Positions 11,262-43,409 of a stretch of DNA of 55,267 bases are shown here, piece by piece (positions within the stretch are counted from its first letter, which is position 1; each line of letters begins with the position of its first letter). The DNA is from Parcubacteria group bacterium (GTDB lineage Bacteria > Patescibacteriota > Minisyncoccia > Phycocordibacterales > Zambryskibacteraceae): positions 1 to 55,267 of the forward strand of contig JBKJKY010000003.1 of the NCBI GenBank assembly GCA_046597175.1, in the 5' to 3' direction. The position numbers were made by a program, and so were the translations under genes. The notes under the pieces are model-generated. The model was not told the DNA's origin and made no database searches. It saw nothing but the letters and a program-made list of their open reading frames with translations.

Positions 11262-12724
<1,463 letters not shown>

Positions 12725-12906
12725 GAAAAACCCTTCTTTAAATTTATTTAAAGATTGAGTGCGTCGATATTGTGAATCTCGATCGAGTTCGCAATGGATG
12801 ATGATTATGAATCCAAAAACTAATTTGACTCATGGAAAGACATGCGCAGGTAATGCTCGAAAGGGTAATACTGAAGGGAACGGAGCAAAATAAAGAATAG
12901 TAGATC

Positions 12907-37652: not shown

Positions 37653-39839
37653 ATGAATACAAATTTAAAATGGGGAATTTTGGGAGGATTGTTTTTGATC
37701 CCCGTTATCCCTTTCATCATTTCTGGAAGCATCCTATTTCCTTTTATTACGGGCAAGAACTTCCTCTTTCGAGTTCTGGTTGAGATTGTATTTGCACTTT
37801 GGCTTATTCTTATTGTCAGGGATTCTGAGTACCGACCGAAGTTTTCTTGGCTTCTTGGATCGTTTGCGATCTTTACTCTCGTGATGGGGATTGCGGATGT
37901 ATTTGCGCAAAATCCATCAAAAGCACTGTGGAGTAACTTTGAGCGAATGGAAGGCTTCATAGCTCTCATTCATTTCTTCCTCTATTTTCTTGTTGCCTCA
38001 TCAGTATTTCACACCATGAAACAGTGGGTGCGGTATTTGTATGTCTGGATGGCCTCAAGTGTCATCATGTGTGTATACGGACTTCTACAGCTTGCAGGGA
38101 AGATAACTATCAATCAGGGAGGTGTGCGTGTTGACGGAACACTCGGGAATGCCAACTATTTGGCAGTGTTCCTCATGTTTAATATTTTTTTCGGACTCTT
38201 CCTATTTCTACGCTCTCAGAATAAGAAAACCGTTGCATGGATTGTGTTTCCTGCTGTTTTGCTCCAATCGATTATTCTCTACTATACCGCGACGAGAGGT
38301 TCTGTTCTTGGTTTAATCGGTGGTCTTTTTGTAGCGGTTTTACTCACTGCACTTTTTGAAAAGCAAAATCCAAAACTTCGAAAAGTGGCCATTGGTGCTG
38401 TCGTCGCGCTAGTATTGTTTGTTGGTGGCTTTGTTGCACTTCGAAACACCTCTTTTGTTACAAGTAGTCCGGTGCTTTCACGCTTCTCTTCACTTTCACT
38501 CTCTGAAATCAAAACTCAAGGAAGATTCTATATTTGGCCGATGGCAATTGAAGGGTTTAAGGAGCGTCCGATTCTTGGTTGGGGCCAGGAGGGATTCAGC
38601 TATGTGTTCAACGAGCACTACAATCCAAAGATGTACGCGCAAGAGCAGTGGTTTGATCGCGCTCACAACATGTTTCTTGATTGGCTTGTCGCTGGAGGAC
38701 TCCTCGGTTTACTTAGTTTTCTATCAATTCTATTTTTTGCATTCTGGTATGTATGGAAAGATGCAAATGCTACGTTCTCATTTGCAGAAAAGAGTCTCAT
38801 TACTGGGCTCCTGTCCGCTTACATATTTCAAGGACTCTTTGTGTTCGACAACCTAATCGGATACATCCTCTTCTTCTCACTCATGGCATTTATCCACGCT
38901 ATGCACGGAGGCAGTCACATGCCAATTCCGAAAGCCCTAGAAAAGGAGGGACCGCGAAATACTTTTGCTGGAGTTGTCGTGGTAGCTCTCTGTGCTGGTC
39001 TGTATTTCACAGTTTGGATTCCGGTAGAGGCTGGGCAGTCGCTTATCGACAGTCTCCGAGCAATCCAGTCTGCCGACCCTGTCTCAGCACTTTCTCAGTT
39101 TAAAAAAGCACTGAGTTACAATACATTTGGAAATCCCGAAATCAGAGAACAACTCATAAATGCTCAGGGTGCGTTTTTGCAGGACAAAGTTCCAGAAAAA
39201 ATAAGAGGCGAGTTCGCAGATCTTGTGCGCACAGAGTACACCAAACAATTTGAAAACGCTCCGAAAGACGCTCGCTACTATCTATTTTACGGGACATTCC
39301 TTCGTTCTGTTGGACTTGGAGACATGGCAATAGAAAATTTCAAAAAAGCTCAAGAGCTCTCGCCTCTGAAGCAAACTATTATGATTGAGATTGGCCTCAC
39401 ATACATGCAAGGGAAGGATTATGTGCACGCTCTCGAATATCTCAAAAAAGCATCAGACTTAGATCCAACGTATGTACAAGCGAAGGTGTACTATGCAATT
39501 GCAGCGCTCTATGCAAACAACCTCGACCTTGCAAATACTTTGTTCAACTCCATTCCAGTTGATCAATTAGTCCATGATGAAAAAGTTGTTCAAGCGTTTG
39601 CACAAACTGGGAGATATCAAGAGTTAATAAAAATATTTACCCGCAGGATTACCGAGGGTGCTGATACATTCGAAAATTCCACAAACCTCGCTGTGTCATA
39701 TCTTGAGTCCGGAGATAGGGTAAATTCTGTTGCAGTGCTTCAGAGATTCTTAGATAAGGATGAAACACAAAAAAACATACAGCAGAAAGCTCAACTCGAG
39801 TATTTCATAAAGGAGATAAAAGCAGGGAGGAACCCGTAA
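37653..39839 (+). CDS. O-antigen ligase/polymerase-like (Wzy_C-type) membrane protein fused to C-terminal TPR repeats
   Basis: 728 aa with about 12 TM segments. YYTATRGSVLGLIGG loop region. The C-terminal ~270 aa carry TPR-like repeats (AIENFKKAQELSP..., ALEYLKKASDLDP...). Confidence 0.7.
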   Translation: MNTNLKWGILGGLFLIPVIPFIISGSILFPFITGKNFLFRVLVEIVFALWLILIVRDSEYRPKFSWLLGSFAIFTLVMGIADVFAQNPSKALWSNFERMEGFIALIHFFLYFLVASSVFHTMKQWVRYLYVWMASSVIMCVYGLLQLAGKITINQGGVRVDGTLGNANYLAVFLMFNIFFGLFLFLRSQNKKTVAWIVFPAVLLQSIILYYTATRGSVLGLIGGLFVAVLLTALFEKQNPKLRKVAIGAVVALVLFVGGFVALRNTSFVTSSPVLSRFSSLSLSEIKTQGRFYIWPMAIEGFKERPILGWGQEGFSYVFNEHYNPKMYAQEQWFDRAHNMFLDWLVAGGLLGLLSFLSILFFAFWYVWKDANATFSFAEKSLITGLLSAYIFQGLFVFDNLIGYILFFSLMAFIHAMHGGSHMPIPKALEKEGPRNTFAGVVVVALCAGLYFTVWIPVEAGQSLIDSLRAIQSADPVSALSQFKKALSYNTFGNPEIREQLINAQGAFLQDKVPEKIRGEFADLVRTEYTKQFENAPKDARYYLFYGTFLRSVGLGDMAIENFKKAQELSPLKQTIMIEIGLTYMQGKDYVHALEYLKKASDLDPTYVQAKVYYAIAALYANNLDLANTLFNSIPVDQLVHDEKVVQAFAQTGRYQELIKIFTRRITEGADTFENSTNLAVSYLESGDRVNSVAVLQRFLDKDETQKNIQQKAQLEYFIKEIKAGRNP

Positions 39840-39844
39840 GAGGG

Positions 39845-39857
39845 ACGAAATACGAAA
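39845..39857 (+). repeat. ACGAAATACGAAA direct repeat, left copy
   Basis: Same 13-mer as within 40268-40288. Confidence 0.7.
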
Positions 39858-39908
39858 CTCGAAATACTGATTACGAAAAACAGATAATGAAATTCAAACA
39901 GGAAGAAC

Positions 39909-39933
39909 AAAAAAACCGCATATGCGGTTTTTT
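39909..39933 (+). terminator. intrinsic terminator
   Basis: aaaaaaa-ccgcatatgcgg-tttttt. Confidence 0.8.
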
Positions 39934-39962
39934 GATATATACAGTGGACAGGAGAAGTGCAC

Positions 39963-39991
39963 TTGACTTTTATCTGATATTTTGCTATTAT
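39963..39991 (+). promoter_or_regulatory. sigma70-like promoter of a non-coding unit
   Basis: TTGACT, a 17-nt spacer, TATTAT. The predicted TSS near 39998 coincides with the first base of the closing stem. Confidence 0.65.
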
Positions 39992-39997
39992 ACCTTT

Positions 39998-40247
39998 GTG
40001 AGTGCGAATCGAAAGATTCAGCTCTAAAAACAGATGTCTGTGCAGCCCCGCTAACTCCGCAAGGAATAGGCGGGGTTTGCATTTATGTCACTATTTCAAT
40101 ACTATTGTATATGCGTCTTCTTTCCAGTTGTGGTTAGCGGACGCACTCACAAAGACATTTGTTCTGGAGCCTGCCCCGCTAACCGCGGATGGACGGAAGA
40201 ATGAACAAAATCAAAACCCTCGACGTTAGTCGAGGGTTTTGATTTTG
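39998..40247 (+). ncRNA. candidate ~250-nt structured RNA, unclassified
   Basis: The 5' GTGAGTGCG (39998-40006) pairs with CGCACTCAC (40142-50). GAAA-tetraloop hairpin at 40007-18. GCAA-tetraloop hairpin with a 4x4 internal loop at 40046-75. A duplicated CCCCGCTAAC (40046, 40174) is complementary to GTTAGCGG (40133-40). Ends in a 19-bp terminator. No credible ORF. Confidence 0.5.
40206..40247 (+). terminator. intrinsic terminator (19-bp stem)
   Basis: caaaatcaaaaccctcgac-gtta-gtcgagggttttgattttg. Confidence 0.8.
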
Positions 40248-40267
40248 TGAATTAATATTAGTCGAAT

Positions 40268-40288
40268 ACGAAATACGAAATACGAAAT
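40268..40288 (+). repeat. tandem heptamer (ACGAAAT x3) containing the right copy of ACGAAATACGAAA
   Basis: acgaaatacgaaatacgaaat. Confidence 0.8.
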
Positions 40289-40407
40289 TTAAAATACAAA
40301 CAAAGGTACATGCAGATTTTAAATTTTCTTATTCTTACACTAATGAGCGAAAAGTATTTCCATGAGACTGCGCAGATGGAAAATCGTATAAGCATCTACA
40401 CTAATGA

Positions 40408-40503
40408 GCGAGAATTATTTTTCAAAGACTTGTGAGTTTGTCGAAACGAGCACGAGGAATTTTTTAGCAAAAAAATATCCGTGCTTTGAAAAATAATTCT
40501 CGC
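40408..40503. repeat. perfect 20-bp inverted repeat separated by 56 nt
   Basis: gcgagaattatttttcaaag (40408-27) and ctttgaaaaataattctcgc (40484-503). The left arm overlaps a 15-bp direct repeat, tacactaatgagcga (40336 and 40396). Confidence 0.85.
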
Positions 40504-40695
40504 GAATACTTATCCACACATTTTTGCAAAAAAATATTGTATGCACATCGCATATGCATCATAATAATTGCAAGGTCGAATAATTATTTTCTGTGTCGCG
40601 TGTCGTGATGCAAAAATAAATTATTGAGAACATTTAAAAATAATTTTCAAAATATTTTTCTAACGGTGTTCGCATCGCAAGAAAGAAAAAATACT

Positions 40696-40794
40696 ATGGC
40701 AGCAAAAAAGAAAAAGGTAGCGAAGAAGAAAGCTCCTGCTCGAAAGACAAAGAAGAAGGCCGCTCCAAAGCGAAAAGCTTCAAAGCGAGCGTAG
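40696..40794 (+). CDS. 32-aa Lys/Ala-rich highly basic microprotein (histone H1-tail-like composition)
   Basis: ATG GCA GCA AAA AAG ... TAG translates to MAAKKKKVAKKKAPARKTKKKAAPKRKASKRA. Followed directly by a strong terminator. Below the 60-aa cut-off of the ORF track. Confidence 0.5.
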   Translation: MAAKKKKVAKKKAPARKTKKKAAPKRKASKRA

Positions 40795-40800
40795 TCTCAC

Positions 40801-40833
40801 AAAAATACCTCGACGAAAGTCGAGGTATTTTTT
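40801..40833 (+). terminator. intrinsic terminator
   Basis: aaaaatacctcgac-gaaa-gtcgaggtattttt. Confidence 0.8.
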
Positions 40834-40907
40834 GCTTATATATCTTTAATCTCACTCAAAATTTCCCAGGTGCGAGGGGAGGTGTGTTGTGGTAGAATAG
40901 CTTCCTA

Positions 40908-43409
40908 ATGAAATGGAATTTTCTACCCAATATTTTTAAAGATACCGCAAGTGCCGAGCTAGATAGGATAGCTCCTATTGTGGCAAAGGTAAACGCTTTT
41001 GAGCCTCATATGAAGGCGCTGAGTGATGCTGATTGTAAAAACCAAACTCTTCTTCTCAAAGAAAGACTATCAAAAGGGGAGTCTCTCGACGATATTTTGC
41101 CTGAGGCATTTGCACTTGTCCGTGAAGCATCATTACGCACACTTGGGCAAAGACATTTTGATGTACAAATCATTGGAGGAATTGTTATGCATGAAGGCAA
41201 AATTGCGGAGATGCGTACGGGTGAGGGAAAAACTCTTGTTGCTACACTTCCTGCATACCTCAATGCTCTTACTGGGAGCGGTGTCCACGTGATTACTGTG
41301 AACGACTATCTATCGAAACGCGATGCGGTGTGGATGGGTCAGATTTATGATTTTCTCGGTCTTTCAGTGGGTATTGTGAATCATGACGCATCGTTTGTGT
41401 ACGACAATACTGCCCTCGAAGTGGATGCTGAGCGCGATGTTGTGGGAGGGTTTGAAGTAAAGAAAGAATTCCTCCGTCCTGTTTCTCGTAGAGATGCGTA
41501 CGCAGCTGACATAACCTATGGAGTGAACAGTGAATACGGATTTGATTATCTTCGTGACAACATTGAATACGAAGAGAGAAATCTTCGTCAGAGAGAGCAC
41601 GCATACGCAATTGTTGATGAAATCGATTCTATTTTGATTGATGAAGCTCGTACTCCGCTTATTATTTCTGCTCCCACTGCTGACTCTGAGAGTTTGTACA
41701 AAACATTTGCGAGTATTGCACTCAAGCTAAAACAAGAAACAGACTTTACCGTTGATGAAAAACTTAAAACAATCAGTTTGACCGATAGTGGTATTGATAC
41801 CGCAGAAAAATTACTTGGAGTAGAAAATATTTATACCGATGGTGGAATCAAGTACGTTCATCACCTAGAAACTGCTGTGCGGGCACAAGCGCTTTTCCAT
41901 ATCGATAAAGATTACGTCATTCGTGACGGTGAGGTAGTTATCGTAGATAGTTTTACGGGAAGACTTCAGCCGGGCCGTCGTTGGTCAGAGGGACTCCACC
42001 AGGCCATAGAAGCAAAAGAAGGGGTTGATGTGCAAAAGGAATCCCGTACCTATGCTTCGATAACCTATCAAAATTACTTCAGGCTCTACAAAAAACTCTC
42101 TGGTATGACCGGTACCGCCTCAACTTCTGCTGAGGAGTTCTATAAAGTGTATGGACTCGGTACAGTAACAATTCCACCCCACAGAACTATTGCACGTATT
42201 GATCACGATGATCTTATTTTCCAAACAGAAGCAGGAAAGTTTAAAGCCATTGCCCGTAAGGTGAAAGAATTAAATGAAAAGGGCCAGCCAGTTCTTATTG
42301 GTACCGTTTCGATTGAAAAGAATGAGCTTTTAAGTAGCTATCTTATTACAGAAGGGGTGCGTCATGAGATGTTGAATGCCAAAAACCACGAACGTGAAGG
42401 TGAAATTGTTGCTCAGGCTGGAAGTGAAAAAGCAGTGACTATTGCTACCAACATGGCAGGGCGCGGAGTAGACATCAAGCTCGGTGGTAATCCCGGCACA
42501 GAGCATTCCTATGAAGACATAAAAACTACCGGAGGACTCTTTGTTCTTGGAACTGAGCGTCATGATGCACGGCGCATTGATAATCAGCTTCGTGGTCGCG
42601 CAGGCCGCCAGGGTGATCCAGGAGAAACTCAGTTTTTTGTCTCTCTTGAAGATGATCTTATGCGCGTTTTTGCGTCAGATACTATCAAAAAAATGATGGG
42701 ACGCTTCGGTATTCCAGAAGATCAGCCAATTGAAAATAGACTTATTACGAATGCGCTCGAAAAAGCACAAGAAAGAATTGAGGGATTTAACTTCGATGCC
42801 CGTAAACACGTTCTTGAGTTTGATGACGTTCTCAACTTTCAAAGAAAGGTGGTGTATGAACGACGACGAGTACTCCTCGTCGGAGGTGAGGCTGGAGGAG
42901 AGCAATATCTCGAAACAGTACTCCTTTCGGCGGATGAAGAGACGCGTACTCAAATTGAAAACAAAAAAACGGAGCTTGGCAGTGAGGTGTTTCTGCGGAA
43001 TGTACGCACAGTTGGTCTTCAGGCGATCGATATGTTTTGGGTTGAGCACTTAGAAATGATGGATCATCTTCGAGGTACAGTAAATCTTCGTGCATATGGT
43101 CAACGTGAGCCACTTGTTGAATACAAACGTGAGGGCCTTACACTGTTTAAAGAAATGGAATCTGCAGCGGTAGCGGAGGTTTTGAGTCTCTTACCCCACC
43201 TTGGGGAGACGAAGGTTGGGCTAGGAACTATCGAGCTCAGTGAAATTCAGTCTGGTGCGGAGTCTATTACCAAACAAGGCAGTATGAGTCCTACTGACCG
43301 TGAGCCAGAGCGTAATGGTCCCTGCCCATGTGGATCAGGAAAAAAATGGAAGAAGTGCGGGATGATCGATACAAAGGAGCATCGCGAGTTTCTCGCAAAG
43401 AACGGATAA
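40908..43409 (+). CDS. secA: preprotein translocase ATPase SecA
   Basis: 833 aa. MRTGEGKTLVATLPAYLNAL, DEIDSILIDEARTPLIIS, TNMAGRGVDIKLGG and the C-terminal zinc motif CPCGSGKKWKKCG. Confidence 0.95.
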   Translation: MKWNFLPNIFKDTASAELDRIAPIVAKVNAFEPHMKALSDADCKNQTLLLKERLSKGESLDDILPEAFALVREASLRTLGQRHFDVQIIGGIVMHEGKIAEMRTGEGKTLVATLPAYLNALTGSGVHVITVNDYLSKRDAVWMGQIYDFLGLSVGIVNHDASFVYDNTALEVDAERDVVGGFEVKKEFLRPVSRRDAYAADITYGVNSEYGFDYLRDNIEYEERNLRQREHAYAIVDEIDSILIDEARTPLIISAPTADSESLYKTFASIALKLKQETDFTVDEKLKTISLTDSGIDTAEKLLGVENIYTDGGIKYVHHLETAVRAQALFHIDKDYVIRDGEVVIVDSFTGRLQPGRRWSEGLHQAIEAKEGVDVQKESRTYASITYQNYFRLYKKLSGMTGTASTSAEEFYKVYGLGTVTIPPHRTIARIDHDDLIFQTEAGKFKAIARKVKELNEKGQPVLIGTVSIEKNELLSSYLITEGVRHEMLNAKNHEREGEIVAQAGSEKAVTIATNMAGRGVDIKLGGNPGTEHSYEDIKTTGGLFVLGTERHDARRIDNQLRGRAGRQGDPGETQFFVSLEDDLMRVFASDTIKKMMGRFGIPEDQPIENRLITNALEKAQERIEGFNFDARKHVLEFDDVLNFQRKVVYERRRVLLVGGEAGGEQYLETVLLSADEETRTQIENKKTELGSEVFLRNVRTVGLQAIDMFWVEHLEMMDHLRGTVNLRAYGQREPLVEYKREGLTLFKEMESAAVAEVLSLLPHLGETKVGLGTIELSEIQSGAESITKQGSMSPTDREPERNGPCPCGSGKKWKKCGMIDTKEHREFLAKNG

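Follow-up and report, generated by a model that had tools for sequence, protein, structure and literature searches.

What kind of gene occupies the 1.07-kb gap that separates a Wzy_C/TPR membrane-protein gene from secA on contig JBKJKY010000003.1 of a Parcubacteria group bacterium (GCA_046597175.1), and does the structured stretch carried there on the + strand represent one RNA or several? The 55,267-nt piece of this contig that was analysed is referred to here as the window, and an earlier note on it had proposed that the gap encodes a single independent RNA of about 250 nt, folded as a pseudoknot or acting as a switch. The RNA region folds at -111.9 kcal/mol (z = -9.5), which none of 200 shuffles matched, and only short ORFs overlap it. 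The opposite strand also folds well (z = -8.4) because the hairpins are symmetric; the + strand was therefore assigned from the promoters and terminators, from G-U pairs in helix P2 that exist on the + strand only, and from a covariance model of the 3' part (R1), which matches 40117-40202 with 95.7 bits on the + strand vs. 34.1 bits on the other. An own promoter, an intrinsic terminator, an intergenic position and conservation in relatives are all found, and together they point to a non-coding RNA locus with its own promoter, as the note had supposed. The homologues and covariation that it had asked to be sought were also found, the locus being conserved in relatives with strongly covarying helices. 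These homologues do not describe a single RNA. It is highly likely that the locus consists of two RNAs, here named RNA A and RNA B (Table 1), which pair with each other in trans. We infer their bounds, and how far they would be transcribed separately or by read-through in this genome, from the sequence.

Table 1. Predicted elements of the RNA locus and its neighbouring genes, numbered by position in the window
Feature	Position	Strand	Remarks
Wzy_C/TPR membrane-protein gene	37653-39839		5' neighbour of the RNA locus
Terminator of the upstream (Wzy_C/TPR) gene	39910-33		first in the gap in + strand order
RNA A promoter	39963-39991	+	-35 TTGACT 39963-68, 17-nt spacer, TG-extended -10 TATTAT 39986-91
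RNA A, ~90 nt	39998-40088	+	5' seed, hairpin H1, linker, terminator H2; model R2 matches 39996-40085
P1a, 5'-terminal seed GUGAGUGCG of RNA A	39998-40006	+	partner P1b in RNA B loop
H1, hairpin GAAUC-GAAA-GAUUC of RNA A	40006-40019	+	
P2a, RNA A linker AGCUCUAAAAACAGAUGUCU	40020-40039, core 40030-39	+	partner P2b of RNA B
H2, GC-rich hairpin and U-rich tail, putative RNA A intrinsic terminator	40040-40088	+	
Promoter-like site of RNA B	40076-40105	+	-35 TTTGCA 40076-81, 18 nt, -10 TACTAT 40100-05
RNA B, ~135 nt including terminator	40112-40248	+	long hairpin P3, conserved apical loop
P3 5' strand	40117-40140	+	outer 40117-25, 4-nt internal loop, inner 40130-40 (GUGGUUAGCGG)
P1b, CGCACUCAC in RNA B loop	40142-40150	+	complementary to RNA A 5' end
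P2b and extension, AGACAUUUGU-UCUGGAGC-CUGCC	40153-40175	+	complementary to RNA A linker
P3 3' strand	40176-40199	+	inner 40176-86 (CCGCUAACCGC), internal loop, outer 40191-99
RNA B intrinsic terminator (putative)	40205-40248	+	20-bp stem, U-tract, A-tract before stem
secA	40908-43409		3' neighbour of the RNA locus

The 5' module is built on one plan across loci, in which a promoter is followed by GUGAGUGC at the transcript start, the variable hairpin H1, a linker of the form (C)CAAAACAAACGAAUGUCU, the GC-rich hairpin H2 and U-rich sequence. The TTGACT-17-TATTAT promoter that had been pointed out in the window is present and scores 10/12 with a TG extension, and in the 35 homologous loci listed TTGAC(t/a)-17-TGcTAtAAT precedes GUGAGUGC by an equal distance. 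H1 varies among genomes in both sequence and length; its GAAA-capped form in the window, placed at 40007-18 in the note, spans exactly 40006-40019, and many genomes show additional complementarity between the H1 3' strand and GCUAGCC of the RNA B loop. The second hairpin singled out in the note, a GCAA-capped one with a 4x4 internal loop at 40046-75, exists as described (CCCCGC / UAAC / UCC-GCAA-GGA / AUAG / GCGGGG) but is not a conserved element, since its tip (40052-40069, UAAC-UCC-GCAA-GGA-AUAG) is an insertion confined to this genus (G000, G002). Outside this genus H2 is a plain terminator made of A-tract, GC stem and U-tract, for example AAAACCCGCC-UCU-GGCGGGUUUUACGUUUUU, and six or more U are found in the 11 columns after the H2 GC core in 28 of 35 sequences. 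The GCAA hairpin is, on these features, part of the putative intrinsic terminator of RNA A. In three loci (L040 in G046, L055 in G054 and L062 in G125) strong extra hairpins, bracketed by GCGUG ... CGUG, are inserted directly after this terminator and look like small inserted palindromic elements, and in the A-B spacer of G047 (L045) a ~95-nt unit ending in the 3' half of H2 is present in two additional tandem copies.

In 72% of 43 loci, vs. 10% of shuffles, RNA B is preceded at 3-14 nt by a promoter-like site scoring 8/12 or better; in the window this site scores 8/12 only and was not reported by a stricter promoter scan. Its -35 box (TTTGCA) overlaps the H2 tail in genomes with short spacers, this one included. 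The A-B spacer ranges in length from 30 to 330 nt and is unalignable apart from -35/-10-like boxes, and in three genomes (G012, G013, G066) RNA B stands behind a promoter-like site without RNA A. The terminator at the 3' end, credited with 19 bp in the note, has 20, and owing to the A-tract before its stem it has the form of a terminator in either direction. Helix counts, here and below, were made on a 16-sequence alignment and then on a 35-sequence alignment. In the P3 inner helix 97-99% of cells are paired and 11/11 pairs have changed on both sides; the outer helix has 81-85% of cells paired and 8/9 pairs changed on both sides. The apical loop presented by P3 measures ~35 nt, is almost wholly complementary to RNA A and reads GCACUCACA-(0-3 nt)-AGACAUUUGUUUUGGAGCnnGCC across loci. 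Its P1b block is the nearly invariant GCACUCACA in 44 sequences, and while this block and UGGAG hardly change at all, P3 drifts freely.

The 9-bp complementarity between GTGAGTGCG (39998-40006) and CGCACTCAC (40142-50) had been read as the closing stem of one RNA. The complementarity is there, but the helix that it forms, P1, joins the two RNAs. Within P1, 93% of cells are paired and three pairs show changes on both sides, and within the P2 core (40030-39 with 40153-62) the corresponding values are 94.7% and 6/10 pairs, so that in both helices complementarity is held by compensatory substitutions. Pairing falls to 34-49% when the partner is slid by 1-3 columns, and 0/500 shuffles reached the scores observed for P1, P2 and P3 together. 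RNAduplex predicts -21.0 kcal/mol for the duplex between 40020-40039 of RNA A and 40152-40171 of RNA B in the window, and a mean of -22.4 kcal/mol over 35 genomes for RNA A against its own RNA B loop. P2 usually extends in these predictions through UUUUGGAGC into GCUAGCC, the latter pairing with the 3' strand of H1, and nearly the whole RNA B loop is therefore "anti-A". RNAcofold of A and B together predicted no intermolecular pairs, because pairing between a loop and a strand is pseudoknotted for this program, and RNAduplex was used instead. A geometric argument suggests that, with 9 bp in P1 and ~20 bp in P2, all helices could not fully form at once. The bipartite site GCACUCAC...AGAYWUU occurs once per genome, as RNA B, with rare exceptions; at least three of the listed matches (G113, G082, G117) lie on contigs other than that of the genome's RNA B. 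When further RNA A targets were looked for, seed 9-mers appeared at about chance frequency in the genome. The extreme invariance of P1 and the loop goes beyond what pairing needs and hints at a further partner, either a protein or other RNAs.

RNA A and RNA B are arranged in tandem in most genomes, and it is the departures from this order that tell one transcript from two. The genes diverge on opposite strands in G061, G172, G067 and G101 and converge in G140. A distance of 0.5-3.8 kb separates them in G161, G121 and G025, and in G130, G144, G093 and G108 they lie on different contigs; in G066 the order is A-murB-B, and G070 has two copies of RNA A. P1/P2 pairing is retained in all of the divergent, convergent, separated and unlinked cases. 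Compensatory changes are found in unlinked genes (RNA A GUGAGUAC with RNA B GUACUCAC in G108; AAAGUUCU with AGAACUUU in G093), in the convergent pair of G140 (GUGAGUGU with ACACUCAC) and in the tandem pairs of G114 (AUGUCC with GGACAU) and G090 (GUAAGUGC with GCACUUAC), and covariation of P2b is seen in G004, G032, G093, G114 and G149. Since pairing and compensatory changes persist between unlinked and opposite-strand genes, RNA A and RNA B are expected to meet in trans.

These arrangements contradict in general the single ~250-nt pseudoknotted RNA of the earlier note, in which P1, P2 and P3 would form within one transcript and the CCCCGCUAAC alternatives would be the two states of a switch, because unlinked and opposite-strand gene pairs exist: at least nine genomes have A and B in divergent or convergent orientation or on separate contigs, with their pairing retained. 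The idea is understandable from the window, where, as in most genomes, the modules follow each other on one strand at a distance of 30-330 nt, where the RNA A terminator could leak and the RNA B promoter is modest, and where the whole stretch folds with the low z-score given above. Against this, P1, P2 and P3 all mutually cross within one strand, H2 is a canonical terminator, and the variable spacer bears promoter-like sites. Nor is the switch conserved. The segment 40133-40 (GTTAGCGG) is indeed complementary to both copies of CCGCTAAC, but the duplication of CCCCGCUAAC is peculiar to this genus and is not kept even in the sister species G002, where the 3' copy has changed to CCCCACUCUC and the hairpin retains CCCCGCUAAC; GUUAGCGG pairs with the 3' copy as part of the covarying P3. 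The other alternative, pairing of GCGGGG with the second CCCCGC, shows no covariation (G011, G020, G014). A single switching RNA is thus very unlikely.

Known RNA families offer no other identity. At Rfam gathering thresholds the whole window yields only 16S rRNA and tRNA-Ile, the 1.1-kb intergenic region searched at E <= 10 gives only terminator-driven chance matches, and no family recurs among 12 homologous loci at E <= 0.5. ARAGORN finds neither a tRNA nor a tmRNA at the locus, and an identity with RNase P RNA or tmRNA was rejected; both are encoded elsewhere in the genome. Literature searches returned no description of the pair. It is probable that RNA A and RNA B are a new family, unmatched in Rfam or the literature searched, which uses antisense loop pairing as a known mode.

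A divergent SRP (4.5S) or 6S RNA deserves separate mention, as this genome has a GNRA-capped 3-bp stem beside a symmetric 4x4 loop at 40046-75, the locus lies upstream of secA, and neither RNA was detected elsewhere in these genomes. The resemblance to the bacterial small SRP RNA (RF00169) proves to be as superficial as the note had judged. In the helix 8 consensus (E. coli 4.5S RNA) a 5' AGG and a 3' AGCA flank the GNRA-capped stem; the symmetric-loop bases of the window, UAAC / AUAG (40052-55, 40066-69), differ from it, and the tip is unconserved beyond this genus. The SRP clan models (RF00169, RF01854) have no match in 39800-40950 at E <= 10. RF00169 was found in 0/41 genomes and RF01854 in 0/5, with positive controls matched for both, and in five genomes RF00169 at E <= 10 gave only a 14-nt chance match. 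The 6S model (RF00013) matched neither the locus, even at E = 10, nor any of five genomes. 6S RNA is a rod of ~180 nt with a central bubble, closed by its 5' and 3' ends; no such rod-with-bubble architecture is seen in two RNAs composed of a hairpin and loop pairing. The protein side agrees: the Ffh M domain (PF02978) was found in 0/121 genomes, and the 61 phylum genomes searched gave no SRP54-type GTPase (PF00448) above cut-off, with controls positive in both searches, and G000 has no SRP-GTPase motifs. SRP identity is refuted because the protein partner (Ffh/FtsY) was not found in the lineage, and for an SRP or 6S RNA of any kind the chance is negligible. The loss of ffh and ffs has been published for Parcubacteria (Nelson and Stegen, 2015; PMC4508563), and the SRP absence observed here spans the whole phylum sample, which is wider than that published loss.

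The gene neighbourhood raises another possibility. The order Wzy_C/TPR gene, RNA A, RNA B, secA holds in 10/10 tested loci of the window's family. Of the 43 loci, 19 have the start of murB 1-50 nt downstream of P3 and no intervening terminator, and in the remainder RNA B has its own terminator and secA lies 340-880 nt downstream. The ancestral order was probably A-B-murB-...-secA. RNA B could then be a cis-acting murB leader, a riboswitch or protein-binding element whose loop binds a metabolite or a protein, with RNA A as a secondary modulator or irrelevant; its abutment on the murB start codon in those 19 loci fits such a role, as do loop nucleotides that are nearly invariant in the way of ligand pockets. 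This is nonetheless quite unlikely. In the other loci RNA B ends at a constitutive-looking terminator, no alternative expression-platform pairing or competing helix is seen, the loop complementarity to RNA A covaries, and in G066 murB sits between RNA A and RNA B. RNA B is also kept where murB lies elsewhere (G004, G033) or was not detected (G000, G001, G016), and no RNA B-like site precedes the relocated murB of G004 and G033. A role restricted to murB is therefore insufficient. We infer that secA stands next door in the window by inherited synteny and that RNA B exceeds the role of a murB leader.

The two RNAs might also be subunits of a constitutive, Parcubacteria-specific ribonucleoprotein RNA rather than regulator and target. 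P1/P2 would then hold the halves together, the invariant nucleotides of loop and seed would form the functional core, and the machine might serve cell-envelope biogenesis in an SRP-less lineage, given its neighbours murB, secA and Wzy_C-TPR. Consistent with this, both RNAs occur once in nearly every genome, persist in more than 100 families and are lost together, the RNA A promoter is very strong, the paired segments are far more invariant than pairing requires, and the genomes are tiny (0.4-1.2 Mb) and without SRP and detectable 6S RNA. Against its being essential, ~20-25% of the order's genomes, many of them 99-100% complete, seem to be without both RNAs, and beyond murB, secA and Wzy_C-TPR no adjacent protein gene is conserved. 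Overall, we regard a ribonucleoprotein of this kind as unlikely.

The distribution of the pair was followed with R1, which represents RNA B, and a second covariance model, R2, which represents RNA A, both run on 151 genomes of the order. RNA B occurs in 109 of these, at one site per genome, and RNA A in 117. Comparison of the two match lists shows that 105/109 RNA B-positive genomes also have an RNA A match, and two "A-negative" genomes that were inspected (G080, G114) carry a diverged RNA A just upstream of RNA B. In genomes without RNA B, the RNA A matches are weak and terminator-like only, except for G140, in which RNA B sits on the other strand and was initially missed. A second R2 match in G000 (C91) is likewise a terminator only. 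BLAST against 40 relatives recovered the 3' half in 14/24 same-family genomes and in two further families. Beyond the order, one weak match, in the same class, came out of 151 genomes sampled across the phylum. Exact loop matches occur in records labelled Parcubacteria/Paceibacterota, Ca. Taylorbacteria, Zambryskibacteria and Yonathbacteria.

With these possibilities weighed, separate small RNAs acting as a base-pairing pair, presumably with a regulatory function, are the explanation that we favour with moderate confidence. RNA A would be transcribed from its strong promoter with a 5' end at or within 1-2 bases of G39998 and would end at H2. RNA B would be driven by a weaker promoter of its own, possibly supplemented by read-through from RNA A, and would fold into the ~20-bp P3 hairpin that presents the loop. 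The free 5' end of RNA A (GUGAGUGCG) would dock on one block of this loop through the 9 bp of P1, and its pre-terminator linker would pair with the adjacent block through the 10-19 bp of P2. Together with P3 and H1 this may produce a four-way-junction complex, in which the intermolecular helices lie side by side and are joined by the 1-5-nt linker of RNA B. RNA A may act as an antisense-type regulator of RNA B, or RNA B as a decoy that titrates RNA A. RNA B may ancestrally have been the 5' leader of murB, with RNA A binding setting the expression of this cell-wall precursor gene; the outcome on the B-murB transcript could be duplex-directed RNase III cleavage or remodelling of the leader, and mutual titration of the two RNAs could occur where RNA B is a free RNA. 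In the window's family murB would have moved away, and RNA B, ending at its terminator, would persist as a free partner RNA. The specific mechanism through murB and RNase III is tentative, and we would sooner doubt it than rely on it. RNase III was found in 5/5 genomes searched and Hfq in 0/5.

Such pairing has parallels in better known systems. CopA and CopT of plasmid R1 reportedly form an antisense/target-loop complex in which two intermolecular helices flank a four-way junction. By analogy, RNA B would be a structured target hairpin recognised via its loop, within a four-way junction with two intramolecular stems, and here too pairing would proceed without Hfq, with RNase III available to cut the duplex. 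The differences are that CopA and CopT are read from the two strands of one DNA segment and are complementary throughout, whereas RNA A and RNA B have separate genes, their complementarity is limited to two blocks held by covariation, only one partner contributes a closed loop, and the locus sits on the chromosome and is conserved in an entire order rather than carried on a plasmid. Sponge or decoy RNAs (GcvB-SroC, the ChiX-chbBC spacer) offer another comparison, as in both cases the main detectable complementary partner of a non-coding transcript is the other transcript, and titration is possible. Known RNA sponges are young, lineage-restricted, Hfq-dependent and mostly by-products of mRNAs or tRNA spacers; the A/B pair, in contrast, is ancient (more than 100 families), dedicated promoters and terminators are predicted for both RNAs, and no Hfq was found. 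RNA B also recalls, in about half of the loci, leaders controlled by small RNAs, such as rpoS with DsrA and RprA, being a long stable hairpin right before the murB start with complementarity to RNA A. Unlike in these leaders, RNA A pairs with an apical loop and not with a start-occluding strand, RNA B also exists as a terminated free RNA, and the usual logic of Shine-Dalgarno occlusion is inapplicable here because 16S rRNA is without CCUCC. The 3' end of the 16S rRNA in the window (12690-12740) reads ...GCUGCUCGUGGAGUAAUUCAAUUG, without this anti-Shine-Dalgarno sequence, and Shine-Dalgarno pairing is therefore probably unused at translation starts.

To our knowledge, almost nothing is known of RNA-based regulation in CPR/Patescibacteria, which are uncultivated, have genomes of 0.4-1.2 Mb and, in the genomes considered here, are without Hfq, SRP and a canonical anti-Shine-Dalgarno sequence. 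The pair appears to have co-evolved across more than 100 families and about three quarters of the order, including Ca. Taylorbacteria, Zambryskibacteria and Yonathbacteria, and would be one of the most broadly conserved partnerships between bacterial RNAs, the universal RNAs aside. The connection with murB suggests that RNA controls the synthesis of peptidoglycan precursors, in organisms believed to rely on hosts for the building blocks of their envelope. The R1 and R2 models are immediately usable for annotating thousands of metagenome-assembled genomes, and the RNA pairs provide a clean natural data set in which the compensatory evolution of unlinked RNA genes can be studied.

Several smaller observations concern the surroundings of the pair. 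The relocated murB genes of G004 (L068) and G033 (L069) are both preceded by a palindrome, TATATCATATATGATATA, and the sequence upstream of it on the opposite strand resembles, by eye, what we take to be a gene for a helix-turn-helix (XRE-like) regulator; the palindrome and this candidate gene suggest that the relocated murB may be under protein-based control. On either side of the RNA pair the window has heptamers repeated in tandem, (ACGAAAT)n, at 39845-39880 and 40263-40290. A role as cassette borders was rejected, as the repeat is dispersed in intergenic regions genome-wide: its 13-mer ACGAAATACGAAA has 17 copies on at least 14 contigs of the genome (0.02 expected), and its 11-mer core CGAAATACGAA is found directly upstream of the tmRNA gene (C77:3257) as well.

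The spacer between RNA B and secA has features of its own. A single perfect DnaA-box-like TTATCCACA at 40510-40518 recurs in the same spacer downstream of RNA B in L005, L009 and L062, and upstream in L045. The window holds no cluster of DnaA boxes (16 one-mismatch sites vs. 15 expected), and a replication origin at the locus was rejected on the grounds of one perfect box and no cluster; TTATCCACA probably serves as one isolated regulatory site and not as an origin. A lysine-rich ORF of 32 codons (MAAKKKKVAKKKAPARKTKKKAAPKRKASKRA) at 40696-40794 is followed by its own terminator, and a similar Lys/Ala/Pro-rich ORF lies downstream of RNA B in G042 (L060). The spacer also contains a 15-bp direct repeat, TACACTAATGAGCGA, at 40336-40350 and 40397-40411, the two copies being 61 bp apart.
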